NCBI GenBank assembly: GCA_025456345.1
Contig: JALOKU010000002.1
Span: 70,024-134,023 of the forward strand
Source: Vicinamibacterales bacterium
GTDB lineage: Bacteria; Acidobacteriota; Vicinamibacteria; Vicinamibacterales; JAKQTR01
Direction: 5' to 3'
Length of the DNA stretch: 64,000 nucleotides
The notes under the pieces are model-generated. The model was not told the origin of the DNA. It did not search any database and saw nothing but the letters and a program-made list of their open reading frames with translations. Position 1 is the first letter of the stretch. Every line of letters begins with the position of its first letter. Shown here one piece after another: positions 20,533-64,000 of the stretch. Position numbers and translations under genes: made by a program.

Positions 20533-21137
20533 GCGAACCGGTACGTTGCCCGTGGCCGGGGTCCGATCCGCTCTATATCGAATACCACGATCGTGAATGG
20601 GGGACGCCCGTCCACGACGACTGGCGCCTGTTCGAGATGCTCGTCCTCGAAGGCGCGCAGGCGGGCCTCAGCTGGATCACCATCCTGCGGAAGCGGCAAC
20701 GGTACCGCGAGGTGTTCGACCGCTTCGACGCGCGCCGCGTGGCCCGCTTCACGCCAGCCCGCCTGGCGCGCCTGCTCGCCGATCCCGGCATCGTCCGCAA
20801 CCGGCAGAAGATCGACTCGGCCGTGAACAACGCGAAGCGGACCCTCGAGGTCGTGCGGGAGTTCGGGAGCCTGGATGCCTGCCTCTGGCGGTTCGTCGGC
20901 GGCCAGCCCATCGTCAACGCATGGACGGCGATGGCGGAGGTGCCGCCGCGGACGCCCGAGTCCGAGGCCATGAGCCGCGACCTCGCCTCGCGGGGATTCC
21001 GTTTCGTGGGGCCGACGATCTGCTACGCCTTCATGCAGGCGACGGGGATGGTGAACGACCACCTCGTCACCTGCTTCAGGCACGGCGCCGCACCTACTTC
21101 TTGTTCGCCTCTTCGAGCGACGCGACGAGCGCGCTGA
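20529..21137 (+). CDS. tag: DNA-3-methyladenine glycosylase I
   Basis: YIEYHDREWGTPVHDD and LSWITILRKR motifs characteristic of Tag. GTG start. The 3' end overlaps the convergent thioredoxin-like gene by 44 nt. Confidence 0.9.
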   Translation: MSEPVRCPWPGSDPLYIEYHDREWGTPVHDDWRLFEMLVLEGAQAGLSWITILRKRQRYREVFDRFDARRVARFTPARLARLLADPGIVRNRQKIDSAVNNAKRTLEVVREFGSLDACLWRFVGGQPIVNAWTAMAEVPPRTPESEAMSRDLASRGFRFVGPTICYAFMQATGMVNDHLVTCFRHGAAPTSCSPLRATRRAR

Positions 21138-22059
21138 TGTCCGCGTCGCTCAGTTTCCGCTTCGCCTGTTCCAGCATCGTGCGGAAGTGCGCGATCTCGT
21201 GCGGCGCCGCGGGGAACCCGACGTTGCCTTTCGCGCCGTCGCTGGTCGCGCCGGCTTTCCCGTCGCCGTCGAGGAACACGAACCAGGGAATGCCCCCCTC
21301 GTCGGCCTGGTAGCGCTTCAGCATCTCGCTGCCGCCCGCCATGCGGTCGGCTTCGATCTTCAGGCTGACGAATTCCTTCGCGAAAACCGGTGCGACGTTC
21401 GGGGACGCCATCCAGGCGCCCAGCCTGTGGCACCACGTTCACCACGGGGCCGAGAACCAGAGAAAGACGTACTTGCCATCGCGTGTCGCCTCGGCCAGGG
21501 CCGCCGCCAGCAGCGGGCCGGCGGCAACCGGCGCGACCTGGTGCTGTGTCAGGAACGCGGCGATCTTCTCGGGGTCGTACACGGTCGGAGCGCCGGGAGC
21601 CGCCGAGAGCGGCTGGCTCGGTTGCTGGGCCAGCACCTTGCCTTCTTTGTCGAGCACGGTGAGATGGGGCAGGGCGCCTGCGGCGAGCGTCACGCCGTAC
21701 GCGGCCGCGAGACCCTGGTTCTTGTCGAGATGCCCGACGTCCACCCTGACGTAGCGATACTCGTTGGAGAGCTTCGTGCGGATGGTCGCGTACGCGGGGT
21801 TGGTCGATCCCCGGCCGTTCAGGTCCTGCTGGAACTTCGTGCACGCCTCGTCGTCGTTGGCGCCCCAGTTGATGAGCACGCGGATGTCGTCTTCGGCGGC
21901 GGCTTTGAGCGCGGCGTCGACTTGCGCGCGCCCGTCTGCGGTCTCGTTGTAGAGTTTCGGCGGCGCCTGCTGAGGCGGCCTCGACGGTGCCGGCGCGGCC
22001 TGCGGCGGAGGCGCCTGGCCTGCCAGCATCAACAGAATCGGCACGACCGGCAGGAGCAT
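21094..22059 (-). CDS. secreted tandem thioredoxin-fold protein; candidate selenoprotein with in-frame TGA (21439-21441) in a U-x-x-C motif
   Basis: ORFs 21439-22146 and 21094-21411 are in the same frame, separated only by one TGA. The read-through sequence is FLWFSAPW-[TGA]-TWCHRLGAWMASP, which places the TGA where the first Cys of a thioredoxin WCxxC motif sits. Signal-peptide-like start MLLPVVPILLMLAG at 22059 after AAGGGGG. Confidence 0.55.
21400..21427 (-). promoter_or_regulatory. candidate SECIS-like hairpin downstream of the in-frame UGA
   Basis: RNA CAGGCUGGGCGCCUGGAUGGCGUCCCCG begins 12 nt after the UGA. It has a 7-bp stem GGGCGCC/GGCGUCC (one G-U) with a 5-nt loop UGGAU, extended by two G-C pairs across a 2-nt bulge. 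Hand-folded only. Confidence 0.35.
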
Positions 22060-22122
22060 CAGGTCCCCCTTTGAGGTCTGCTGGAGCCGGGAGGATAACA
22101 TATTCATCTCCGAAAGAATTAG

Positions 22123-22151
22123 TTGACAATGCCATTGTGCCGGCATAGATT
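22123..22151 (+). promoter_or_regulatory. sigma70-type promoter with palindromic operator for the BlaI-like gene
   Basis: TTGACA (22123-22128), exact 17-nt spacer, TAGATT (22146-22151). A perfect palindrome ACAATG-C-CATTGT (22126-22138) overlaps the -35 and spacer. Sits in a local AT-rich island in a GC-rich genome. Confidence 0.6.
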
Positions 22152-22166
22152 TTAGGGAGTCCTAAT

Positions 22167-22589
22167 TTGTTCGGAGACGCTGCAACGGCACGAGGACGAC
22201 GTCACGTGGCACGAAAACCATCACCAACGCTGACGGACGGCGAATTGAAACTGATGCGCGTCCTGTGGCGCCAGGGACCGTCCACCGTGTCCGCGATTGT
22301 CGACGCCGTTGCCGACGCCAGTCCGCCCGCCTACAACACCGTGCAGACGATGATGCGGATTCTGGAGCGGAAGGGGTTCGTGTCCCATCGCAAGGACGGC
22401 CGGGCGTTTGTCTTTGCCGCCCTCGTCGACGAGACGCGCGCGCGCAAGTGCGCCATCAGCCACGTCCTCGACCGCTTTTTCGACAATTCGCCGGGCACGC
22501 TGGTGCTCAGCCTCCTGGAGCACGAGGACGTGCCCGACGCTGACCTGCGGCAACTGCGCGATTTGATTCAGCGCCACGAGTGGAGATGA
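22167..22589 (+). CDS. BlaI/MecI/CopY family transcriptional repressor
   Basis: LTDGELKLMRVLWRQGPSTVSAIVDAV...YNTVQTMMRILERKGFV winged-helix pattern of penicillinase-repressor family. TTG start after GGGAG. Confidence 0.85.
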   Translation: MFGDAATARGRRHVARKPSPTLTDGELKLMRVLWRQGPSTVSAIVDAVADASPPAYNTVQTMMRILERKGFVSHRKDGRAFVFAALVDETRARKCAISHVLDRFFDNSPGTLVLSLLEHEDVPDADLRQLRDLIQRHEWR

Positions 22590-24028
22590 CTGCCGTCTGG
22601 GCGTTGTCGTGGCTTGGCCGGAGCGCGGCGCTGGTCGCGCTGACCGCGATCCTCGTCCGGCTGCCTGGCTGCCGGCGGAGTGCGGCTGCGCGGCACGTCG
22701 CCTGGCTGCTGGCCCTCTTCCTCTGCGCCGGGCTGCTCGTCTGGCCGCCCGCGCCAGCCGCAGCGACGGCACCTGCGTTTCGATTTGGGCCGGGTGCGGA
22801 CGCCGCACCGCCGGCGAGATCGTTCCCTCTCGTCGTGCTCCCGGCACCGGTCACGGCGGCGGCCTGGTGGGTCGGCTGGATCTGGGTGGTTGGCGCGGCC
22901 GCAGGGCTGGCCGCGGTCGCGCATGATGTCCGGCGCGTCGTCGTCATGAAACGCCAGACGGTGCCGCTGTCCCTGGAGGAACAGGTGCGGCTGGGCTCGG
23001 GGATGGCAGCCCTTGCGTCGAGGCGTGCGCCACGCATCGCCTGGTGCGGCGCCGTGGAGTCGCCCGCCGTGCTGGGGTTCTTCGGCCCCCTCATTGCCCT
23101 GCCGCGTTCGCAGGTGTTGTCCCTCCCGGACGAGCAGGCCCGGCTGGTCGTGCTGCACGAACTGGCGCATGTCCGCCGCGGCGATGACTGGTGGGCGCTC
23201 GCCGGTCGCATCGTCGTCGCCTTGACCTGGCTGAATCCGGCCGTGCACTGGGTCCGCCACGAGCTGTCGCTGTCGCGGGAGATGGCGTGCGATGAATGGG
23301 TGGTGCGTCAGACCGCCGCGCCGGCCGCGTACGCGAAGTGCCTCACGGATGTCGCGGGCCTGCGCACGCAGATGCGGCGGCTGCGGCTCGCGGCTGGCGT
23401 CATCGGGCGGCCCGGCTCGCTTCGCCGGCGCGTGGTCGGCGTGCTCGCGCTGGATCGCCGCCCGTCCGCTCGCGCGGCCGCCATCGCGGCGTGGCTTGCC
23501 CCCGTCGCCGTGTGCGTGGTGGCTGCCGGGCTGTTGCAGCTGCCCCAGGTGTTCATCGTCGCGCACACGCCGGATGCGACCGTGCAGACGCCGTTCCGGC
23601 CCGCTCCCGCGGCCGCCGCCGTGGCGTCTGTCGGACTTCCGGCCACGCGGCCGGACGGCCAGCGCCCGGTGATCGGCACGCGCCGCGCCTTGCTTCAGCG
23701 CCGCCCGGCTGGCGTTGCGGCGGCCCCTGCCGTCCCGGCGGCGAGTGGCGGAAGCGCGCCGACGGCGCCGGACACGGCGGCAGCGCCGACGACTGCCGTC
23801 GACGCGGCGCCGATTGCCGCGAGCCCCTTGCCCGGAGCTGGCGCTCCCGGTGTGATGGCCGCCGCCGTCACGGACCGCATCCCGTTGCAGGCCGGCGCCG
23901 CGCGCTGGTGGCGCGGGCCCGCCGCGATCGGCGAGTCGGCGGGCGGCGCGGCCGCGACCGCGAGCCGCGCGACCGCGTCGTTCGTCACGCGTCTTGGATC
24001 ACACGTGCCTCAGCTGCTCACACGGTAG
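22586..24028 (+). CDS. BlaR1-like M56 family membrane metallopeptidase with low-complexity Ala/Pro C-terminus
   Basis: HEXXH motif in LVVLHELAHVRRGDDWW, with N-terminal TM segments. ATG at 22586 overlaps the BlaI stop (ATGA). No recognisable penicillin-binding or other sensor domain after the protease. Confidence 0.8.
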   Translation: MTAVWALSWLGRSAALVALTAILVRLPGCRRSAAARHVAWLLALFLCAGLLVWPPAPAAATAPAFRFGPGADAAPPARSFPLVVLPAPVTAAAWWVGWIWVVGAAAGLAAVAHDVRRVVVMKRQTVPLSLEEQVRLGSGMAALASRRAPRIAWCGAVESPAVLGFFGPLIALPRSQVLSLPDEQARLVVLHELAHVRRGDDWWALAGRIVVALTWLNPAVHWVRHELSLSREMACDEWVVRQTAAPAAYAKCLTDVAGLRTQMRRLRLAAGVIGRPGSLRRRVVGVLALDRRPSARAAAIAAWLAPVAVCVVAAGLLQLPQVFIVAHTPDATVQTPFRPAPAAAAVASVGLPATRPDGQRPVIGTRRALLQRRPAGVAAAPAVPAASGGSAPTAPDTAAAPTTAVDAAPIAASPLPGAGAPGVMAAAVTDRIPLQAGAARWWRGPAAIGESAGGAAATASRATASFVTRLGSHVPQLLTR

Positions 24029-24058
24029 TCGACTGCCCCCAATCCCGAGGAGTGTCGG

Positions 24059-25588
24059 ATGCGAGTCCACCTAGTCAATCCCAGCCACAAGTCGTTCGGC
24101 GTGGCCGTCATCACGCCGCGCTGGCTGTTTGTCCTCGCTGGTGCCACGCCGCGCACCTATGGCGATCCCGCTCTGATCGATGAGTCGCTCGATCCATTCG
24201 ATCCCGCCACGGTGCAGCCCGGCGACGTCGTGGGGATCAGCATTCACACCGGCAACGCCCTCCGCGGGTACGACGTCGGCAAGGCCGCGCGGGACCGCGG
24301 AGCCTGGGTCGTGTACGGCGGCATCCACGCCACGCTCTTTCCCGAGGAGCCGCACACGGTAGGCGCCGCGCACGCGGTCGTCACCGGCGACGGCGACGTC
24401 ATCTGGCCGCTGGTCCTCGCGGATTGCGCGAAAGGGGCCCCGGAGCGGATGTACGCGGCCGGCCGCGTGCCCGGCGACCAGATGGTCCAGGCGCGGTGGG
24501 ACCTGATCCAGCGCGGCAAGTACATGTGGGCGTCGGTGCAGACTGTGCGGGGCTGCCCGAAGCACTGCTCGTTCTGCTCGGTGTGGCGGACCGATGGCCA
24601 GGCCCCGCGGTTGCGCGGCAATGCGGCGGTCGTCGAAGAGGTGGTGCAGCTGCGCCGCCTCGGCTTCCGGTTCGTCGCGCTGGCCGACGACAATTTCTAC
24701 CCCGTCACGCAGGGTGACCTCGCCCAGGCGGGCCGGCGGGTGGATCGCACCAGGCTCCTCGAACTGGAAGCCATGCGCAACGACCGCCTCGACCTGATGC
24801 GGCGGCTGGCCGAGCTGCCGGCCGACATGGTGTTCTTCACCCAGATCACCATGGAGGCCTCGGAGGATCATGAGTTCCTCGACGCCATGCGCGAGGCCCG
24901 GATCAAGGGCGCCCTGGTCGGCGTCGAGGCGATCACGCCGGACGGCCTGAAGGACGTGTACAAAGGCTTCAACGCCACCGGCGACGCGCTGGTGGCGCGT
25001 CTCCGGACCTTCCGCGCGCACGACATCCACGTGCTCGGTTCGTTCATCTTCGGCCTGCCGAGCGATCGGCCGTCGACGTTCGCCGCCACCGCCGCGCTCT
25101 CGAGCAAGGCCGACATCACGTTCGCCCAGTTCGTCATGCTCACGCCGTTTCCCGGCACGGTGGACTTCGACAGGTGGGCGAAGGGCGTCGATGGCGAAGG
25201 GAAGAATGTGGACGGCATCCCGTACAGCCGCCACTGGCTCATCCCGCGGGAGCAGCGGCCGCACATCTACACCCATCACCCGGTAATGTCGGCCGACGAG
25301 ATCCGGATGTACACGCAGCGCACGTGGGACCAGTTCTACAGCATCGGTTCGGTGTGGCGCCGCTCGCGGTGCGTGAAGTCGGTCAGGGGGAGACTGGCGT
25401 TCGTGCTGGTGTCGAAACTCTACCGGCAGATGTACGCCAACACGGGCATCACCACCGACAGCGGCCGCGTGGCGCGCTCGGTGCAGTGGTCGCGGTGGCT
25501 GGCGGCGCCGCTGCAACGGCTCTTTGCAGGGACGCCCATGCCCGACCTCGAGATGCCCCGCGCCGAGGTGATCGAGCCCGCCGCCTGA
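24059..25588 (+). CDS. B12-binding-domain radical SAM protein
   Basis: 509 aa. N-terminal B12-binding-like Rossmann segment (VVGISIHT...VVYGGIH) followed by RGCPKHCSFCSVW (CxxxCxxC). Confidence 0.85.
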   Translation: MRVHLVNPSHKSFGVAVITPRWLFVLAGATPRTYGDPALIDESLDPFDPATVQPGDVVGISIHTGNALRGYDVGKAARDRGAWVVYGGIHATLFPEEPHTVGAAHAVVTGDGDVIWPLVLADCAKGAPERMYAAGRVPGDQMVQARWDLIQRGKYMWASVQTVRGCPKHCSFCSVWRTDGQAPRLRGNAAVVEEVVQLRRLGFRFVALADDNFYPVTQGDLAQAGRRVDRTRLLELEAMRNDRLDLMRRLAELPADMVFFTQITMEASEDHEFLDAMREARIKGALVGVEAITPDGLKDVYKGFNATGDALVARLRTFRAHDIHVLGSFIFGLPSDRPSTFAATAALSSKADITFAQFVMLTPFPGTVDFDRWAKGVDGEGKNVDGIPYSRHWLIPREQRPHIYTHHPVMSADEIRMYTQRTWDQFYSIGSVWRRSRCVKSVRGRLAFVLVSKLYRQMYANTGITTDSGRVARSVQWSRWLAAPLQRLFAGTPMPDLEMPRAEVIEPAA

Positions 25589-27650: not shown

Positions 27651-28091
27651 CTACGTGAGAAGCGGCGCCGCCGCCGCGAGAAGCAGCCGCACGATCACCG
27701 CGATGGTGAGCGTGGTGCCGACCGTCGCCCAGAACCCTTGCGCGAGCGAGGTGTTCGCGATGAGCCCGGGCACGATGTAGCCCACGACCCGGAGGTCCGC
27801 GGGAGCCGGTGAGGACGCGAGCGCGAGGGTGTACAACCCGTGCAGGACGAAGCCGGTCAGGATCGTGACGCCGAACCGCCGGCGCCCGTACAGCACGACC
27901 ATCCGCATGAACCCGTAGCGCACGGCTGCGAAGGTCATCCCGCCGACGGCGATCGTCGCAAGCAATCGCGCCGGCTGGGTCAGGTGCAGGGCCAGATACC
28001 CTGGCACCACGAGGCCGCCCGACGTCAGTCCGAGCACTTCCGTGAAGAACAGGTTCAGCGCGATTCCGAGGCCGAGGGCGAGTTCCACCAT
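27651..28091 (-). CDS. pgsC: poly-gamma-glutamate biosynthesis membrane protein PgsC/CapC
   Basis: Small polytopic protein MVELALGLGIALNLFFTEVLGLTSGGLVVPGYLAL, typical of CapC. The ATG at 28091 is 1 nt after the pgsB stop. Confidence 0.85.
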   Translation of the reverse strand: MVELALGLGIALNLFFTEVLGLTSGGLVVPGYLALHLTQPARLLATIAVGGMTFAAVRYGFMRMVVLYGRRRFGVTILTGFVLHGLYTLALASSPAPADLRVVGYIVPGLIANTSLAQGFWATVGTTLTIAVIVRLLLAAAAPLLT

Positions 28092-28092
28092 G

Positions 28093-29235
28093 TCAGGCCT
28101 GCTGCAGCGCGGCGACAATGGCGTCGACGCGGATGCCTTTCGTGTTGCCGCAGAACACGACGACTTCGGGCGGCGCCACGCCGGTCAGGCGCCGGCGCAG
28201 CTCGGCCGCAACCGCCCGAGGCGGTGTGAACAACGCCCGCCCGCCCGGCAGGCCCGCCCGCAGCCGGCGCCAGGTCACCCAGTCGGGCCGGTCGCCCGTG
28301 ACGATGACCGCATCGCCGGACTGCGACCACGGGGCCGCCTCGCCGAACTGGCCGAGGCGGGCCGGGCGGTCCGCGCGGTGATGAAAGACGAACACCGCGC
28401 GATCGTGCCGCTCTCCGAGGATGAGCCCCAGCGACTGCGGATCGTTCGCGGCGGACGCATCGACATAGTCGACGCGGCGTCCCGCCACCTCGAGGCGGCC
28501 CGCGCGGAGCGCGCCCGGATCGGGGCGAGCCGCCAGCATCCCCCGGCGGGCGGCCTCCTCGCCGACGCCAAGCTCGCGAACCACGGCAAGGGCGATGCCG
28601 GCATTCTCGGCCATCCAGGGCCGGCCGGCCCACGCCTCCGGCTCTCCCTCGTCTGCCACGGCGTGCACGACACGGCTGCCGCGCGCCTGCGCGACGCGGG
28701 CCAGGATGTCGCTCCCGCCGGTTGGGCCCATGACGAGGATCGCTCGGCGCGGCACGGTCGCGCCAAGGGCCGCCGCCACTTCCTCGATCGTCGTGCCCAT
28801 CGCCTCCGCGTGATCGGGGCGCGCGTTGGTCACGACGCCAATCGTCGCCCGAATCATCTCGTCTTCACACACAGCCTGGAGTTCCGGGTCCACGGCCATG
28901 CACTCGATGACGACCGCCGCGGCCCGCAGCCGGTGCGCCTCGCGCAGCAGCCACAACTGTTCCTGGATGCTCGCTGGCGCGCGGCGGCGCACGGGCCGCT
29001 CGCCGCCATCGGGCAGGATGATCCGCGGCGCCGTGCCGGTGGTCTTGGCGACGGTCCGGATGCCCGCCTCGCGCAGGGCGGCGGCGATGAGCCGCGTGAC
29101 CGTGGATTTCCCGCGCGTGCCGTTCACGTGAATGCGGATCGGGATCGCGGCCAGCGCGCGGTCGCGCGCGCGCCGCTCCCACAGGAGCAGGGCCAGCAGG
29201 CCGGTGAGGAGCGCGGCAGCGATGATCAGGGCCAC
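28093..29235 (-). CDS. pgsB: poly-gamma-glutamate synthase PgsB/CapB (Mur-ligase family)
   Basis: N-terminal TM helix then IHVNGTRGKSTVTRL P-loop. Mur ligase-like middle domain (VVTNARPDH). Confidence 0.9.
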   Translation of the reverse strand: MALIIAAALLTGLLALLLWERRARDRALAAIPIRIHVNGTRGKSTVTRLIAAALREAGIRTVAKTTGTAPRIILPDGGERPVRRRAPASIQEQLWLLREAHRLRAAAVVIECMAVDPELQAVCEDEMIRATIGVVTNARPDHAEAMGTTIEEVAAALGATVPRRAILVMGPTGGSDILARVAQARGSRVVHAVADEGEPEAWAGRPWMAENAGIALAVVRELGVGEEAARRGMLAARPDPGALRAGRLEVAGRRVDYVDASAANDPQSLGLILGERHDRAVFVFHHRADRPARLGQFGEAAPWSQSGDAVIVTGDRPDWVTWRRLRAGLPGGRALFTPPRAVAAELRRRLTGVAPPEVVVFCGNTKGIRVDAIVAALQQA

Positions 29236-29247
29236 GGCGTCAGTACG

Positions 29248-30115: not shown

Positions 30116-31954
30116 ATGCCTGAACACCGAAGTGCCCGGCCGACCGTGGCCAATTCCGCCCGCCGCAACATCGCCATCATCGCCCACGTCGATCACGGCA
30201 AGACGACGCTGGTGGACGCGCTGCTGTTCCAGAGCGGCACGTTCCGCGCGAACGAGCGCGTGGCCGAGCGCGCGATGGACAGCATCGACCTCGAGCGCGA
30301 GCGCGGCATTACGATCATGGCCAAGAACACGGCCGTCCACTACGGTGACGTGCTCATCAACATCGTCGACACGCCCGGGCACGCGGACTTCGGTGGCGAG
30401 GTCGAGCGCACCCTGTCGATGGTGGACGGCGTGCTGCTCCTCGTCGATGCCTCGGAGGGCCCCCTCCCCCAGACGCGCTACGTCCTGCGCAAGGCCCTGG
30501 AGCGACGCCTCGCGCCGATTGTCGTCATCAACAAGATCGACCGCCAGGACGCCCGGACGAAAGAGGTGCTCAACGAGGTCTATGACCTGTTCATCGACCT
30601 CGACGCCACCGAGGAGCAGCTCGATTTCCCCGTGCTCTACACCAACGCCAGGGCCGGTACGTCGACGACGGACCTCGACGTGCCGTCGCCGGACCTCCGA
30701 CCGCTCTTCGACGCGGTCCTCGCCCACGTGCCCCCGCCGGCGGGTGACCCCGCCGCGCCGCTGCAGATGTTCGTGGCGAACCTCGATTCGAGCGACTACG
30801 TGGGCCGCATCGCCGTGTGCCGCATTTTCAACGGCCGGGTCAAGCTCGGCGACCAGGTGGCCATCAGCAAAGTGGACGGTGTCCTTCTGCCCACGCGCGT
30901 CACCAAGCTGTTCGCGTTCGACGGGCTCAAACGCATCGACGTGGAGGAGGCCGCGGCGGGTGACATCGTCTGCGTCGCCGGGATCGCCGACATCACGATC
31001 GGGGAGACGATCACCGACGCCGAGCATCCGGACCCGCTGCCGCCGCTGGCGATCGACGAGCCGACCGTGTCGATGATCTTCGGCGTCAACACCTCGCCGA
31101 TGGCCGGCCGCGACGGCCAGTTTGTCACCTCCCGCCAGCTCCGGGACCGGCTGAACAAGGAGTTGCTCGGGAACGTGTCGATCCGCCTCGAGGACACCGA
31201 CGCGCCGGAGCAGATCCGCGTCATCGGCCGCGGCGAACTGCAGCTCTCGATTCTCATCGAGATGATGCGCCGCGAGGGGTACGAGTTGCAGGTGTCTCGG
31301 CCCGAGATCGTGACCCGCGAGGTGAAGGGCAAGGTGATGGAGCCGGTCGAGAGCCTCATGATCGACGTGCCGGAGGTCCACCAGGGCGTCGTGATCGCCC
31401 AGGTCGGCAGCCGCCGGGGCACGATGACCAGGATGGTCAACCACGGCAGCGGCCGGGTCCGGCTCGAGTTCGAGATCCCCACGCGCGGCCTGATCGGGTT
31501 CCGCTCGCAGTTCCTCACCGACACGCGCGGCACGGGGATCATGAACCACCTCTTCCACGAATGGCAGCCGTGGTTCGGCCCGATTCCCGCGCGCGCCACC
31601 GGGGCGCTGGTCGCCGACCGTACGGGCGTGAGCACCGCGTACGCGATCTACAACCTCCAGGAGCGGGGTGAGATCTTCATCAGCCCGGGCACGTCGGTCT
31701 ACGAGGGCTTCATCGTGGGCGAGAACGCCCGGGCGAACGACCTCGACGTCAACGTGACGAAGGAAAAAAAGCAGACCAACATGCGGGCCTCGACGGCCGA
31801 CGAAGCCATCCGGCTCGTGCCGCCGCGAGTACTCGGCCTCGAGCAGGCCATCGAGTTCATCAACGACGACGAGCTCGTCGAGGTGACACCGAAGTCGATT
31901 CGCGTGCGCAAGCGCGTCCTCGCGGCGAACATGAGGCCCAAGAACCGGGAATAG
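30116..31954 (+). CDS. typA: translational GTPase TypA/BipA
   Basis: [36 protein letters not shown]. 612 aa with full-length BipA-like pattern. Confidence 0.95.
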
Positions 31955-47186: not shown

Positions 47187-47261
47187 CCGAACCCCGAACT
47201 CCGACCCCCCGAGTCCCGGATCCCGACTGACTAGCGCCTAGCGCCTAGCCCCTAGTAGAAT
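47187..47261 (+). repeat. degenerate 7-nt periodic array (CCGAACC type grading into GCCTAGC type) ending in TAGAAT
   Basis: ccgaacc ccgaact ccgaccc cccgagt cccggat cccgact gactagc gcctagc gcctagc ccctagt, then TAGAAT (47256-47261). Confidence 0.8.
47256..47261 (+). promoter_or_regulatory. candidate -10 element TAGAAT upstream of the molybdenum hydroxylase operon
   Basis: CCTAGTAGAATGCCCCC, near-identical to the block at 42738-42754. GGAGG at 47276-47280 and ATG at 47286. Confidence 0.4.
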
Positions 47262-47285
47262 GCCCCCGACCCCCCGGAGGTGCGC

Positions 47286-47924
47286 ATGGATCACGAGGAC
47301 AGAGACAAATCCGCAGCGGCGACAGGAGGCGTCAGTCGCCGCGGATTCATCACGTCGGTCGGCTCCGGAGCCATCGGCGTGGCGGCGGCGAGCGCACTCG
47401 TGCAGGGCGCGCCGCCACAGGCCCAGGCCGAGGCCGTCAAAGCCGGCGAGGTGAGCCCCATCGCGCTCACCGTCAACGGGCGCACGCACAAGCTGCTGGT
47501 CGAGGCCCGCTGGTCGCTGCTCCACGTCCTGCGCGACCACCTCGGCCTGACCGGGACCAAGGTCGGGTGCGAGCGCGGTGAATGCGGGGCCTGCACGGTG
47601 CTCATCGACGGCAAGGCCCGCTACGCCTGCATGACGCTCGCGGTGGAAGCCGACGGGCACGACATCACGACGGTGGAAGGGCTCATGTCCGGAGAGGAAC
47701 TGGGGCCGACGCAGCGCGCGTTCGCCGAGGAAGATGCCTTCCAGTGCGGCTACTGCACGCCGGGCCAGGTGATGGCGGCCGAGGGCCTGCTGCGCGCGAA
47801 CCCGTCGCCCGATCTCGACCAGATCCGCCACGGCATGGCGGGCAACATCTGCCGGTGCGGGGCGTACGCCCACATCTTCAAGGCCGTCGCGAAGGCGGCC
47901 GATCTGAAGCGGCAGGGGAGGTGA
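47286..47924 (+). CDS. (2Fe-2S)-binding small subunit of xanthine dehydrogenase-family molybdoenzyme, Tat signal (PaoA-like)
   Basis: Twin-arginine leader VSRRGFITSVGSGA. CERGECGACTV and CGYCTPG cluster motifs. Confidence 0.9.
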   Translation: MDHEDRDKSAAATGGVSRRGFITSVGSGAIGVAAASALVQGAPPQAQAEAVKAGEVSPIALTVNGRTHKLLVEARWSLLHVLRDHLGLTGTKVGCERGECGACTVLIDGKARYACMTLAVEADGHDITTVEGLMSGEELGPTQRAFAEEDAFQCGYCTPGQVMAAEGLLRANPSPDLDQIRHGMAGNICRCGAYAHIFKAVAKAADLKRQGR

Positions 47925-47927
47925 GCC

Positions 47928-50270
47928 ATGAAGGATGACGAACTCTACTTCTGGAACGGCCCGCTTCCCGAGACGCAGGCGCCCGCGCCCGGCCCGGTGC
48001 CAGAGCCCTGGGACCAGACGACGGTTGTCGGGAAGCCCGTGATTCGCATCGATGCCTACGACCGGGTCAGCGGCTCCGCACAGTACCCGTCCGATGTCAG
48101 GCTCGCCGACATGCTCCATGCGGCGGTCCTCTCGTGCCCGCATGCCCACGCCATGGTCCGGAAAGTGGACACGTCCGCGGCCGAGAAGATGCCGGGCGTC
48201 AGGGCCATCCTCAAAGACGGGGACGTCGGCACGAACGTGCCGTGGTTCGCGGGCCGCGGCGGGTTTTCGAGCCGGCTGTTCGATCCGCACTGCCGCTACG
48301 AAGGCGACGAGGTGGCCGTCGTGGCCGCCGACACGATTTACCAGGCGTGGGACGCCGTGCGCGCGATCAAGGTCGACTACGAGGTCTTGCCCCAGGTCAC
48401 CTCGGTCGCGGACGCCCTGAAGCCGGGCGCGCCGGCGGTCCGCGACGGCGGCAATGCGATTCCGCCCGGGAAGCCATACGTTCGCGGTAACGTCGAAGCC
48501 GGCTTCGCGTCGGCCGACGTCGTGATCGAGCACACCTTCACCACGCCGTGCGAGCTGCAGAACGCGATGGAGCTGCACGGGTGCGTCGCGAAGTGGGACG
48601 GGCCGCGCCTCACCATCTGGGAATCGACGCAGGGCGTGTTCGGCGTGCAGACGGGTGTCGCGCGGGCGCTGAACATCCCGCTCGCCAACATCCGCGTCAT
48701 CGGGCACTACATGGGCGGCGGCTTCGGCGCGAAACTGTCCGCCGGCAAGTACTCGGTGATGGCGCCGCTGCTCGCCCGGAAGACCGGGCGGCCTGTCCGC
48801 CTGTTCCTGAGCCGGGAGCAGGTGTGCCTCGGCATGGGCAACCGGCCGGCCAACACCATCACGCTCAAGGCCGGCGTGAAGAAGGACGGCACGCTGGTCG
48901 CCCTCCAGTCGAAAGCGGTCGGGTCGGGCGGCGCATACTCTGAGGGCGGGACGGGAGGCGTCGACTTCGTCATCCGCGAGCTCTACGCGTGCCCGAACGT
49001 CCACTGCGAGAATGCGAACGTGTTCACCCACGCGGGGCCCGAGCGCCCGTTCCGGGCTCCCGGCCACCCGCAGGGCGCGTGGGCGCTCGAGATCATGCTC
49101 GACGCGCTGGCCGCGAAGATCGGGATGGACCCGGTCGCGCTGCGCTTCAAGAACGTCACCCTCGTCAGCCAGACGCGCACCGGCAACCCGAGCTACACCT
49201 CTACCGGCTTCGCCGACTGCCTGACGAAGGGCGCGGAGGCGTTCGGGTGGGCGGCGGCGCGGGCGCGCAAGCCGGCGCCCTCGCACGTCAGGCGCGGCGT
49301 CGGTGTGGCCGGCGGCATCTGGCAGGGGGGCGGAGGCAGTCCTCCCTCGACGGCCATCGTCAAGCTGTTCGCCGACGGCAGCGCCAACCTGAACATGGGG
49401 GCGAGCGACATCGGCTGCGGCACCAAGACGTGGGGCGCGCAGATTGTCGCCGAGGAACTCGGCGTGCCGATGGACCGGATCTCGGTGGAACACGCGGACA
49501 CCGGCACGACGCAGTTCGCCACGCCGAGCGGCGGCAGCAAGACGGTGCCGACCGAATCGCCCGCCATCCGCTCGGCGGCCCTCGAGGTCAAGCAGCAGCT
49601 CTACGCCATGGCGGCCGAACAGCTCAAGCTGCCCGCCACGGACCTCGAACTGCGCGGCAGTGAGGTGGTGTCGAAGTCCGACGCCACGAAGAAGGTGGCC
49701 CTCGGCCAGATCCAGGCCTTCGGCCGCCGCGGACTGCTGGTCGGGATTGGCTACCGCGTGCCGAACCCGCCCGGCTCGGTGGTCAACCCCTTCGGCGTGC
49801 AGTTCGCCGAAGTCGAGGTCAACACGAAGACCGGCGAAATCAAGGTGCTGCGGTTCCTGGCGGCCCACGACAGCGGGCGGGTGCTGAACCCGAAGATGTT
49901 CCAGAACCAGCTGATCGGCGGCATCACGATGGGGATCGGGTTCGGCCTGACCGAGGACCGCGTGATGGACGACAGGCAGCTCGGGAAACTGCTCACCGTG
50001 AACCTGCACGACTACAAGCTGCCGACGGCGCTCGATGCGCCGGCCGACAAGACGATGGTGATCGTGGACCCGCAGGACCGCGCGTTCAGCAACACGGGCG
50101 CCAAGGGCGTCGGCGAGCCCGCGACGATTCCCACGGCACCGGCGATTGCCAACGCGGTGTTCCATGCGACGGGGTTGCGCCTGACCGACGCGCCCATGAG
50201 CCCGGCGCGTGTGCTGACGGCGATTGCAGGCCAGAAGCCGGCCCCGGCCGGTCAGAAGGGGAGGGAGTAA
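47928..50270 (+). CDS. molybdopterin-binding large subunit of xanthine dehydrogenase-family enzyme (PaoC-like)
   Basis: 780 aa with an a/b-hammerhead-like N-terminus (RIDAYDRVSGSAQYPSD) and an aldehyde oxidase/XDH-type body (GGGFGAK, ...GVGEPATIP). Confidence 0.9.
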   Translation: MKDDELYFWNGPLPETQAPAPGPVPEPWDQTTVVGKPVIRIDAYDRVSGSAQYPSDVRLADMLHAAVLSCPHAHAMVRKVDTSAAEKMPGVRAILKDGDVGTNVPWFAGRGGFSSRLFDPHCRYEGDEVAVVAADTIYQAWDAVRAIKVDYEVLPQVTSVADALKPGAPAVRDGGNAIPPGKPYVRGNVEAGFASADVVIEHTFTTPCELQNAMELHGCVAKWDGPRLTIWESTQGVFGVQTGVARALNIPLANIRVIGHYMGGGFGAKLSAGKYSVMAPLLARKTGRPVRLFLSREQVCLGMGNRPANTITLKAGVKKDGTLVALQSKAVGSGGAYSEGGTGGVDFVIRELYACPNVHCENANVFTHAGPERPFRAPGHPQGAWALEIMLDALAAKIGMDPVALRFKNVTLVSQTRTGNPSYTSTGFADCLTKGAEAFGWAAARARKPAPSHVRRGVGVAGGIWQGGGGSPPSTAIVKLFADGSANLNMGASDIGCGTKTWGAQIVAEELGVPMDRISVEHADTGTTQFATPSGGSKTVPTESPAIRSAALEVKQQLYAMAAEQLKLPATDLELRGSEVVSKSDATKKVALGQIQAFGRRGLLVGIGYRVPNPPGSVVNPFGVQFAEVEVNTKTGEIKVLRFLAAHDSGRVLNPKMFQNQLIGGITMGIGFGLTEDRVMDDRQLGKLLTVNLHDYKLPTALDAPADKTMVIVDPQDRAFSNTGAKGVGEPATIPTAPAIANAVFHATGLRLTDAPMSPARVLTAIAGQKPAPAGQKGRE

Positions 50271-61909: not shown

Positions 61910-62096
61910 GAGTCCGCGTCGCAGAGACTTGGCGTCGGGACAGTTGTCACCAACGGCGGTTTCTGGAATCCTTTCAGGGTGGAGGTCCGCAGCGAGGCCT
62001 CCAGCTCGGGCGCCGGCATTCTGATCGCCATCATTCATCTGCCATCCGGCCTCGAGTCCACCCTTGTTGCCGTCACGCGCTGAAACGAGAGGCCGC

Positions 62097-64000
62097 ATGG
62101 ACCCCCTCTCTCGTCGCCGCTTTCTGCAGATTTCCGCTGCCACAATCGCTGCAACGTCGGCCACGGCTGGCGTCGCGAGGCTGGCGGGCCGCGCCGCCGG
62201 CGAAGAGGCGGCCGTCAAGGGCATCCACCGGATCCCGACCTTCTGCGACATCTGCTTCTGGAAGTGCGGCGCGATTGCCTACGTCGAGGACGGGAAGCTC
62301 TGGAAGATCGAGGGCAACCCGGACGACCCCTTGAGCCGCGGCCGCCTCTGTCCCCGGGGCACTGGAGGCGTCGGCGCCCATTTCGACGACGATCGGTTGA
62401 AGGCCCCGCTCATCCGGAGCAGCCGGCGCGGCGAGGACGTCTGGGCGCAGGTCACCTGGGACGAGGCGCTCACCCACATCGCCGAGAAAATGCAGGCCAT
62501 CAAGGCCAGGTACGGCCCCGAGGCCGTCGCGCTCTTCTCGCACGGGCTCGGCGGCACGTTCTTCAAGCACACGATCAAGGCCTTCGGCTCGCCGAATATC
62601 GCGGCGCCGTCGTTCGCCCAATGCCGCGGCCCGCGCGACGTCGGGTTCCACCTGACGTTCGGCGAGGAGGTCGGGTCCCCCGAGCGGACCGACATCCGCA
62701 ACGCCCGCTGTCTCGTGCTCATCGGATCGCATCTCGGCGAGAACATGCACAACACGCAGGTGCAGGAGTTCGCCGAGGCCATGGACGCCGGCGCGAGCCT
62801 CATCGTCGTCGACCCGCGCTTCTCGATCGCGGCAGGCAAGGCGAAGCACTACCTGCCGATCAAGCCGGGCGCGGATCTCGCCCTCGTGCTCGCGTGGATG
62901 CACGTGCTCGTGGCCGAGGGGCTCTACGACAGGGACTACGTCGCGCAGCACGGGTTCGGCTTCGAGGCGTTTGCGGCGGAGCTTGCGCCGTACACCCCGG
63001 AGTGGGCCTACCCGGAAACGGGTATCGAGCCGGCGGTCATCCGCGAGACGGCCCGCGAAATGGCCCGCTATCGTCCGGCCACGCTCGTGCACCCCGGGCG
63101 TCGCGCCACCTGGTACGGCGACGATGCGCAGCGGTCGAGGGCGATTGCGCTGCTGAACGCGCTGCTTGGAAGCTGGGGGCGCAAAGGCGGCTTCTACACT
63201 CCGGTGTCGATGGACATCCCGGGCTACCCGTACCCGCCGTACCCGGCGTCCGCCAAGGGTAAGGTCGACAACCCCGGAGGCAAGTACCCCTTCGCCCTCG
63301 AGACCTTGACGACGGGCATCCGCGAGGCGACGCTCACCGGCCAGCCGTACCCCGTCAAGGGATGGTTCACGTACGCCACGAACCTCGTCACCGCGCTGCC
63401 GAACGAGGCCGAGACCATCAAGGCCATCCAGAGCCTCGACTTGATGGTGGTCGTGGACGTGATTCCGGGCGAGATGGCCGGATGGGCCGACGTCGTGCTG
63501 CCGGAGTCGACGTATCTCGAGCGGTACGACGATCTGAACCCCGAGCTGTTCCGCGAGCCCTTCGTGGCGCTGCGGCAGCCGGTCGTCGCGTCGCCGCACG
63601 ACCAGAAGCCGAACTGGTGGATTGCCCGCGAGCTGGCGAAGAAGCTGGGCCTCGAGTCGTACTACCCCTGGAAGACGATCGAGGAGTACCTCGACTACCG
63701 GCTCACGAAGGCGGGGCTGAGCTTCGCCGAGCTGAAGCAGAAGGGCGTCATCCACGGGCGGCCGCAGCCGATCTACTACGAGGACGGCGTCGCGCCGGAG
63801 TTCCCGACGGCGTCAGGCAAGATCGACTTCTACTCGACGGCGCTCCGCGACAAGGGATTCGATCCGGTGCCGAAGTACACGAAACCGGCGGACCCTCCGC
63901 CCGGCATGTTCAGGCTGCTGTTCGGCCGGGCGCCCGTGCACTCGTTCGGCCGCACGCAGTCCAACCCGATCCTGCACGAGATGATGGAAGAGAACGAACT
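62097..64000 (+). CDS. Tat-exported molybdopterin (bis-MGD) oxidoreductase catalytic subunit, PsrA/PhsA-like; partial, runs off window
   Basis: Hand translation from the ATG at 62097 gives MDPLSRRRFLQISAAT (Tat), an N-terminal 4Fe-4S motif FCDICFWKCG...RLCPRG, and later SFAQCRGPRD. The frame stays open to 64000. Absent from the supplied ORF track, presumably because it has no stop in the window. Confidence 0.85.
   Translation, partial: MDPLSRRRFLQISAATIAATSATAGVARLAGRAAGEEAAVKGIHRIPTFCDICFWKCGAIAYVEDGKLWKIEGNPDDPLSRGRLCPRGTGGVGAHFDDDRLKAPLIRSSRRGEDVWAQVTWDEALTHIAEKMQAIKARYGPEAVALFSHGLGGTFFKHTIKAFGSPNIAAPSFAQCRGPRDVGFHLTFGEEVGSPERTDIRNARCLVLIGSHLGENMHNTQVQEFAEAMDAGASLIVVDPRFSIAAGKAKHYLPIKPGADLALVLAWMHVLVAEGLYDRDYVAQHGFGFEAFAAELAPYTPEWAYPETGIEPAVIRETAREMARYRPATLVHPGRRATWYGDDAQRSRAIALLNALLGSWGRKGGFYTPVSMDIPGYPYPPYPASAKGKVDNPGGKYPFALETLTTGIREATLTGQPYPVKGWFTYATNLVTALPNEAETIKAIQSLDLMVVVDVIPGEMAGWADVVLPESTYLERYDDLNPELFREPFVALRQPVVASPHDQKPNWWIARELAKKLGLESYYPWKTIEEYLDYRLTKAGLSFAELKQKGVIHGRPQPIYYEDGVAPEFPTASGKIDFYSTALRDKGFDPVPKYTKPADPPPGMFRLLFGRAPVHSFGRTQSNPILHEMMEENE

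Follow-up and report, generated by a model that had tools for sequence, protein, structure and literature searches.

Thioredoxin-fold proteins with a UxxC motif, where U is selenocysteine (Sec), are the commonest kind of prokaryotic selenoprotein. Among such proteins, the family named 'Thiol:disulfide interchange protein' is reportedly to be credited to Kryukov and Gladyshev in 2004, and the consensus model of the bacterial selenocysteine insertion sequence (bSECIS) is said to be owed to Zhang and Gladyshev. The classic selenoprotein pattern consists of a Sec/cysteine (Cys) pair among homologues, the UxxC motif and the thioredoxin fold (PMC1088965; PMC13188914), and the 'Thiol:disulfide interchange protein' selenoproteins are characterised by PF13098, UxxC and the reference WP_011366075.1 from Geobacter (PMC13188914, PMC9312934, PMC1794560). 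Only one PF13899 selenoprotein is on record, listed in the inventory of 2022 and, as NF041199, in that of 2026; it is a CxxU protein with a PDZ domain. In this study, a stretch of 64,000 nucleotides from a Vicinamibacterales bacterium of the Acidobacteriota (contig JALOKU010000002.1; hereafter the window, meaning this whole stretch) was investigated for a minus-strand gene that is interrupted by one in-frame TGA. On comparative grounds, this locus is very probably a real UxxC thioredoxin-fold selenoprotein gene equipped with its own SECIS, the UGA being decoded as Sec. The biology is expected and not surprising, because selenoproteins of this kind are the commonest in prokaryotes. The family itself is missing from both the 2022 and the 2026 selenoprotein inventories, the later of which lists neither PF13899 nor PF03190, and selenoprotein catalogues thus appear to omit it.

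Comparatively, the window protein resembles the 'Thiol:disulfide interchange protein' selenoproteins in its thioredoxin-fold UxxC and its Cys homologues, the match to PF13098 (33.3 bits) being a likeness at the level of the domain. It differs from them in its best model, PF13899 (68 bits), in its tandem two-domain architecture, and in that its family is found in Acidobacteriota and Planctomycetota whereas theirs is found in Deltaproteobacteria; no deltaproteobacterial protein was present among the best 120 of its 231 homologues. With NF041199, the sole catalogued PF13899 selenoprotein, it shares the Pfam family Thioredoxin_7, but NF041199 carries Sec at the second position (CxxU) together with a PDZ domain, while the window protein is UxxC without a PDZ match in Pfam, and a comparison of the two gave no match even at E <= 1. 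The gamma domain of DsbD, its C-terminal one, and DsbH are similar in structure, show weak sequence matches and, like the window protein, are presumed to be periplasmic; these matches (NF043050 for DsbH, 25.6 against 190 bits; NF001419 for DsbD, 20.4 against 330 bits) are far below the equivalog cutoffs. Unlike DsbD and DsbH, the window protein has no membrane domain and no DsbD/CcdA neighbour, possesses an extra inactive thioredoxin (Trx) domain, and would carry Sec in place of Cys. All NCBIfam matches were likewise far below their cutoffs, and the best of them were weak ones to Trx domains, namely those of TsoB, DsbH and DsbD. The acidobacterial clade also recalls the a/b tandem of PDI in having one redox-inactive and one active Trx domain, although the global superposition is poor, there is no sequence relation beyond the Trx fold, and the window protein is bacterial and contains a predicted Sec.

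The sequence-only reading had described two open reading frames (ORFs) in one frame parted by a single TGA, and translation confirmed this. The minus-strand frame 22146..21094 has TGA 21441-21439 as its only internal stop, 22146..21439 and 21411..21094 being the two ORFs of this shared frame. The residues around the TGA are KYVFLWFSAPW before it and TWCHRLGAWMASPNV after it, which on reading through give FLWFSAPW-U-TW-C-HRLGAW, and the longer translation runs from RDGKYVFLWFSAPW across the stop to TWCHRLGAWMASPNVAPVF. Gene calls of homologues begin at a Met equivalent to ATG 22074 (MLLPVVP...); since stops block the upstream ATGs at 22146 and 22101 in relatives, 22074 is the conserved start. 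The G+C content of the window is 70%, and that of third codon positions (GC3) is 0.83 and 0.91 in the two halves, as in real coding sequence. Of the 44 GC3-supported ORFs in the window, 26 end in TGA, which makes it the most frequent ordinary stop, and therefore no global reassignment of the code is at work. Public gene callers split the gene into one of about 206 and another of about 105-114 amino acids (aa), and name the shortened products 'thioredoxin family protein' or 'hypothetical protein'. In two metagenomic or genomic relatives, designated here as the other loci by L numbers, the part after the TGA was called as a separate gene of 106-114 aa (L200:10649-10969 and L201:10646-10990), starting at the Met 27 nt past the TGA and having no Pfam match. 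Splitting at the TGA affects the family systematically and is an artefact of annotation.

With Cys written in place of the stop, Pfam models match straight across the TGA: Thioredoxin_7 (PF13899) with 68.2 bits against a cutoff of 27 (E 7e-19), Thioredox_DsbH with 41 bits, above its cutoff, and Thioredoxin_2 (PF13098) with 33.3 bits against 27. The Thioredoxin_7 match spans the site, and the claim that the TGA lies at the first redox position of a thioredoxin-fold motif was borne out. For the structure, we used the AlphaFold (AF2) model of P0049, the closest natural Cys orthologue with 51% identity to the window protein. This model is confident (predicted local distance difference test, pLDDT, 89.7; predicted template modelling score, pTM, 0.82) and consists of two alpha/beta domains, with C188-x-x-C191, the equivalent of U207-x-x-C210, lying between strand 178-184 and helix 189-198. 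As modelled, the UxxC occupies the canonical thioredoxin active-site position at the junction of beta1 and the active-site helix. The TGA would split the Trx fold between these two elements, and therefore neither annotated fragment is a complete domain. The nearest solved structure to the N-domain is 3fk8, a Xylella 'disulphide isomerase' (profile E 4e-22; fold template modelling score, TM, 0.83), and those nearest to the C-domain are 2kuc, DsbH 2ju5 and DsbD-C (TM 0.67-0.69). Superposition of the whole P0049 model on PDI-family tandem Trx proteins is loose, with a root-mean-square deviation of 12-17 A and TMq of about 0.25. A second, N-terminal Trx-like domain lacking the motif had also been proposed, and it was recovered both by the 3fk8 match and in alignment A1, where WGANDDEAC of the window (codons 21850-21880) stands opposite WGGNWCGWC of the homologues. 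The proposed signal peptide fared less well. The N-terminus is indeed a hydrophobic segment, 14 residues long, whose first residues average 2.2-2.8 on the Kyte-Doolittle scale, but it has no charged n-region. Cys homologues bear classical signal peptides, and from both features we infer that the protein would be exported.

The alternation between TGA and Cys codons supports Sec. A search of 5.8 billion proteins yielded 231 relatives, of which the best 120 were compared by length. About 100 of these 120 are only 196-220 aa long and span the N-terminal 51-66% of the query; these short clusters (about 205 aa) range in identity from 93% down to about 45%, and all ten that were inspected end in (F/V)WF(S/A)APW. 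The 17 full-length relatives (309-346 aa) have APWCGWCHRL at the site. A scan of genomic DNA, in which a single genome stood for each species, gave 280 relatives, and the codon at the Sec207 site was read in the best 80: TGC or TGT in 73 and TGA in seven, which is the mixture of codons that the sequence-only reading had expected from an alignment of orthologues. The seven comprise six metagenome-assembled genomes (MAGs) of Acidobacteriota (L001-L004, L011, L012) and one of Planctomycetota (L024). MAG contigs bearing the TGA form are CAVOWJ010000002.1, CAVORY010000009.1, CAWAMP010000017.1, CAVZMW010000003.1, CAVXIH010000009.1, DATJPG010000107.1 and JBGPOP010000046.1, whereas the Vicinamibacteraceae MAG WYBR01 is a Cys-form genome. 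A further scan of metagenomes with the coding motif CCN-TGG-TGA-NNN-TGG-TGC-CA, which leaves the hairpin unconstrained, added 19 TGA members of the family. Altogether, the TGA form is represented by 27 loci and about 100 protein clusters and persists in proteins of as little as about 50% identity. The family was encountered in wetland, freshwater, wastewater, sediment and soil metagenomes.

The sequence beyond the TGA behaves as coding sequence. The frame is open for 114-131 codons past the TGA in all 23 loci tested, and in the closer pairs with the window the ratio of nonsynonymous to synonymous substitution rates (dN/dS) is 0.15-0.28 downstream of the TGA and 0.13-0.22 upstream of it. In four independent metagenome studies of wetland, freshwater and wastewater, the TGA was spanned with zero variants at 21385-21494, while flanking sites were variable. 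Metatranscriptome contigs of sediment samples also cross the TGA, where carry-over of DNA is possible. Separately, contig depth in both metagenomes and metatranscriptomes was seen to spike at 21418-21453 (the UGA and hairpin) and at 21490-21525, because short contigs of related strains match only these most conserved stretches.

A hairpin downstream of the UGA had been proposed as compatible with a bacterial SECIS. Its 7-bp stem and UGGAU loop were found again; its position and shape had to be corrected, since it lies at 21421-21403 and not at 21400-21427, begins 17 and not 12 nt past the UGA, and has a continuous stem instead of a bulged one. The hairpin sits within the codons for L-G-A-W-M-A-S and includes one G.U pair and a 5-nt loop that begins 24 nt past the UGA with G at loop positions 2 and 3; its minimum free energy (MFE) is -12.8 kcal/mol. 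The published bSECIS model calls for a loop of 3-9 nt, an upper stem of 4-16 bp, a G among the first two nucleotides of the loop, a distance of 16-37 nt from UGA to loop and an MFE <= -7.5 kcal/mol (PMC13188914 Fig. 2), and the window hairpin agrees with all four bSECIS criteria of that source, which upholds the proposed compatibility. Like the element of E. coli fdhF, it is a hairpin within the coding sequence on the 3' side of the UGA that fits the consensus model (PMC13188914 Fig. 2); unlike the fdhF element, to which it has no sequence similarity, it lacks a bulged U, and it is a predicted target of SelB.

The stem is a property of the Sec forms. Of the 27 Sec forms, 21 have all seven pairs at the homologous positions of the stem and 24 have at least five, whereas the 73 Cys forms have one to five (mode three), though 58 of them possess the same UGGAU loop, which encodes Trp-Met (Mann-Whitney p = 1e-13, uncorrected for phylogeny). 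Across the Sec forms, 95.8% of cells are paired as against 34-56% with slid partners, and one pair is changed on both sides; wobble transitions and one compensatory change of C-G into G-C set the stems apart. The stem codons GGC-GCC...GCG-(U/A)CC of the acidobacterial Sec clade are free of synonymous changes, although dS elsewhere is 0.4-2, and two loci (L138, L158) that replace Ser by Leu (UCC to CUC) still form 7/7 pairs. Among the outliers, L024 has UGGAGGCC/GGCCUCCA, with C-G turned into G-C and G.U into A-U relative to the main stem; L124 and L125 have UUCG-(bulged A)-GGCC/GGCCCGAG; and L103 has an unrelated 8-bp hairpin, GCUCGGGG-AGUU-CCUCGGGC, which encodes KLGEFLGQ and starts 14 nt past the UGA. 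Judged by these sequences, independent Sec lineages form predicted hairpins at one place from different sequences, and the outliers are the most informative. The proposal of a U-x-x-C selenoprotein thus gained support from the TGA/Cys pairs, the selection downstream and the hairpin specific to Sec forms.

The evolution of the family was examined with a neighbour-joining (NJ) tree without bootstrap. Sec forms of the acidobacterial type made up one deep clade, while L024 and L189 were nested within the planctomycete Cys clade, and therefore at least two conversions of Cys to Sec took place, each with its own hairpin. A divergent Sec form, LLYLSAPW-U-GWCHKLGEFLGQ, was observed in the region of L103:2969 (metagenome contig Ga0256841_1021384). 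L103 was left out of the tree as its upstream part is too short, and from its sequence it may represent a third independent conversion. In the acidobacterial Sec clade the CxxC of the N-domain has been lost (NDDEAC, NDDERST, NDDKGS), whereas planctomycete forms, their own Sec members included, retain WCxWC there; loss at the first site and gain of Sec at the second therefore co-occur in one clade only.

Table 1. Coordinates of the predicted selenoprotein gene and of its features within the window
Feature	Position	Strand	Remarks
Whole selenoprotein gene	21094..22074	-	321 codons incl. Sec207; stop TAG 21096-21094; translation
Hydrophobic N-terminus MLLPVVPILLMLAG, then Pro/Gln/Ala-rich linker	22033..22074	-	Presumed export signal or membrane anchor
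N-terminal Trx-like domain with degenerate active site (NDDEAC for NWCGWC)	21565..21969	-	Second Thioredoxin_7 stretch; alignment A1; PDB 3fk8
C-terminal redox-active thioredoxin-fold domain with U207-T-W-C210	21097..21522	-	Pfam matches across TGA
UGA, predicted Sec207, attacking position of UxxC	21439..21441	-	TGC/TGT or TGA in aligned relatives
TGC, resolving Cys210 of UxxC	21430..21432	-	Unchanged in every Sec form and throughout alignments A1 and A2
Predicted bSECIS hairpin GGGCGCC-UGGAU-GGCGUCC	21403..21421	-	5' arm 21421-21415; loop 21414-21410; 3' arm 21409-21403

Several observations weigh against decoding of the UGA as Sec and have to be set beside this evidence. Compared with shuffled sequences, the stability of the hairpin region (76 nt) gave z = -0.49, which is not above chance in DNA of 70% GC. 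A search for Rfam SECIS families, a check suggested by the sequence-only reading, was negative for the window at gathering thresholds and for 21300-21520 at E <= 10; Rfam covers SECIS elements of bacteria poorly, and this null therefore says nothing either way. As stability is near chance and no Rfam family matches, the case for the hairpin is a comparative one. Here too there are weak points: covariation is thin within the main clade, the stem being near-invariant and overlapping conserved codons, the formal pair count is modest, and the stems of L011 and L012 contain a G-A mismatch. Moreover, selA, selB, selD and tRNA-Sec were not found in the 64-kb window and about 2.2 Mb of flanks. ARAGORN detected 22 tRNAs and zero tRNA-Sec in the window, the Sec-form loci and all 199 loci; Rfam returned no tRNA-Sec match in the window at gathering thresholds or in 21300-21520 at E <= 10; and a search of signature motifs of SelA, SelB and SelD recovered BipA at 30182 and nothing else. 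As a genome contains only a few such genes, their lack in the window and flanks is not evidence of absence. A weak match of 27% identity to an approximate E. coli SelD probe in L047, a Cys-form genome, was judged not to be SelD. Among TGA-interrupted redox ORFs, the window and 15 Sec-form loci returned the target gene only, and therefore provide no independent second selenoprotein. The presence of selenium in the protein is a prediction from the comparison of sequences.

Two competing explanations concern what the ribosome does at the UGA. If it were a true stop, the locus would encode a 206-aa N-terminal protein and a separate protein of about 105 aa from ATG 21411, 27 nt downstream. This is what gene callers annotate, the N-domain is a complete fold similar to the single-domain 3fk8, most Sec forms have an ATG after the TGA, and some termination at UGA is to be expected, given that recoding in E. 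coli is only 30-40% efficient (PMC4513850). Nevertheless, the nine codons from TGA to ATG are conserved at the protein level, the resolving Cys included (W-C-H-R-L), while changing synonymously, and the ATG itself is replaced in L189 (ACG) and L103 (CTC). Judged by the model, one product would bear an orphan beta1 and the other a Trx domain with neither beta1 nor active site; the downstream fragment alone has no Pfam match, and in 73 genomes the full-length Cys homologue is one continuous polypeptide. We regard two separate genes as very unlikely, and the split fold, the conserved W-C-H-R-L and the persistence of the TGA down to about 50% identity likewise dispose of the outcomes that the sequence-only reading had named as refuting it, namely that the halves are normally separate genes or that the TGA is strain-specific. 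A lone TGA in an intact ORF also resembles a recent nonsense mutation or a miscalled base in one sequence, which would make the gene a pseudogene or an assembly error. Since the same TGA recurs in the 27 loci and the roughly 100 protein clusters, dN/dS downstream is well below 1, and the codon is invariant in four independent metagenomes, this explanation is excluded, and we attach practically no probability to it.

It is harder to separate Sec from a standard residue inserted at the same codon, as the UGA might be recoded to Cys or another amino acid by a selC* tRNA-Cys with a SelB paralogue, or by an acidobacterial allo-tRNA acting as suppressor. Natural examples of selC* tRNA-Cys (UCA anticodon) with a linked selB* exist, and allo-tRNAs of Acidobacteria are suppressor-like (PMC5389517); such recoding predicts the same TGA/Cys pairs, the same conservation downstream and a hairpin of the SelB type. 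However, selC* has been reported in Firmicutes, Thermodesulfobacteria, Nitrospirae and Proteobacteria, and not in Acidobacteria (PMC5389517), while an allo-tRNA suppressor delivered by EF-Tu needs no hairpin at SECIS distance and would read through the ordinary TGA stops, which end the majority of the GC3-supported ORFs in the window. No suppressor tRNA of either type was found in the window or flanks, and if the product were the Cys form, selection would be expected to turn the TGA into TGC. Recoding to a standard residue is hence highly improbable in our judgement, and decoding as Sec is the reading that we prefer.

If the UGA is decoded as Sec, a mechanism may be proposed by analogy with E. 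coli fdhF. At the UGA, the hairpin 17-35 nt downstream would be bound by SelB.GTP.Sec-tRNASec, and this complex would insert Sec in competition with RF2. The resulting U207-x-x-C210 would stand at the N-terminus of the first C-domain helix, the nucleophilic position of thioredoxin-type oxidoreductases, from where the selenolate would attack a disulfide (or sulfenate) of the substrate to give a selenenylsulfide that is resolved by Cys210. The acidobacterial N-domain, deprived of its CxxC, probably acts as a substrate-binding or chaperone-like module, in analogy to the b domains of PDI. We infer Sec insertion, the redox direction and the substrates in this scheme. A bolder idea is that the UGA serves as a selenium-dependent switch between a 206-aa, redox-inactive, exported N-domain and the full redox-active enzyme. 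The N-domain is a self-sufficient fold (like 3fk8) and has lost its CxxC only in the Sec clade, both of which are compatible with a switch, but we consider it a rather unlikely one.

With regard to genomic context, the neighbours of the gene are a convergent tag glycosylase gene, a divergent blaI-blaR1 pair, a B12/radical-SAM gene, capB/capC and an SDR gene. The tag gene (plus strand, stop 21135-21137) and the selenoprotein gene (minus strand, stop 21094-21096) are convergent and overlap by 44 nt (21094-21137), and a similar overlap was noticed in L001. Synteny with blaI, blaR1 and tag is confined to close relatives, and distant Sec forms have wholly different neighbours; inference of function from an operon was rejected on this account. 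The gene stands alone, and therefore its context reveals no substrate. When window 22167-25585 was compared with L150:1956-2538, from the metagenomic relative closest to it, blaI of the latter was seen to lie immediately before the B12/radical-SAM gene; blaR1 (M56) is missing there, while it is present in the window, L001, L166, L175 and L184. The intergenic region 22106-22174, between the gene start at 22074 and the divergent blaI, harbors two motifs conserved in L001, L166, L175 and L184, which read on the minus strand as CCGAACAAATTAGGACT (22158-22174) and TTGTCAACTAATTCTTTCGGAGAT (22106-22129). Their cores, CCGAAcAAATTAG and CTAATTcTTTCGG, are inverted copies (11/13) about 40 nt apart, and the two may represent either paired operators of the BlaI family or a divergent promoter used in common. 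The palindrome ACAATGGCATTGT (22126-22138) was also considered as an operator and rejected, as it is not conserved in relatives.

Elsewhere in the window, capC/capB-like genes of poly-gamma-glutamate synthesis were observed at 27651-29247, and a molybdopterin oxidoreductase with a Tat signal, cut by the window end, at 62025-64000. A small and large subunit pair like those of the xanthine dehydrogenase family occupies 47259-50270 in one frame with a TGA between them, which is an ordinary stop-start junction. On the Sec-form contig L201, positions 1-1072 encode a NuoF-like Fe-S fusion protein of 938 aa that runs off the flank and displays the domains Complex1_51K, 2Fe-2S_thioredx and several 4Fe-4S. 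NuoF-like subunits are often found alongside formate dehydrogenases, a group of enzymes that can be selenoproteins.

Regarding its significance, the family is widespread, with about 100 protein clusters, yet mis-annotated as a shortened 'thioredoxin family protein' and an orphan ORF of about 110 aa, and annotation pipelines have no NCBIfam model with which to insert Sec in it. Its at least two independent conversions of Cys to Sec, with the SECIS having evolved in the same few codons from different sequences, make a clean case that is useful for training and testing predictors of SECIS elements and selenoproteins. For the Acidobacteria, three selenoprotein families with four proteins have been tabulated (PMC1794560 Table 2), and Occallatibacter riparius is listed as Sec-utilizing with three selenoprotein genes (PMC12013277 Table 2). 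The present gene adds a selenoprotein to the Acidobacteriota, an abundant soil phylum with only 3-4 reported in these sources, and if the switch were true, the ratio of the two isoforms would report the selenium supply of Acidobacteriota in soil and sediment.

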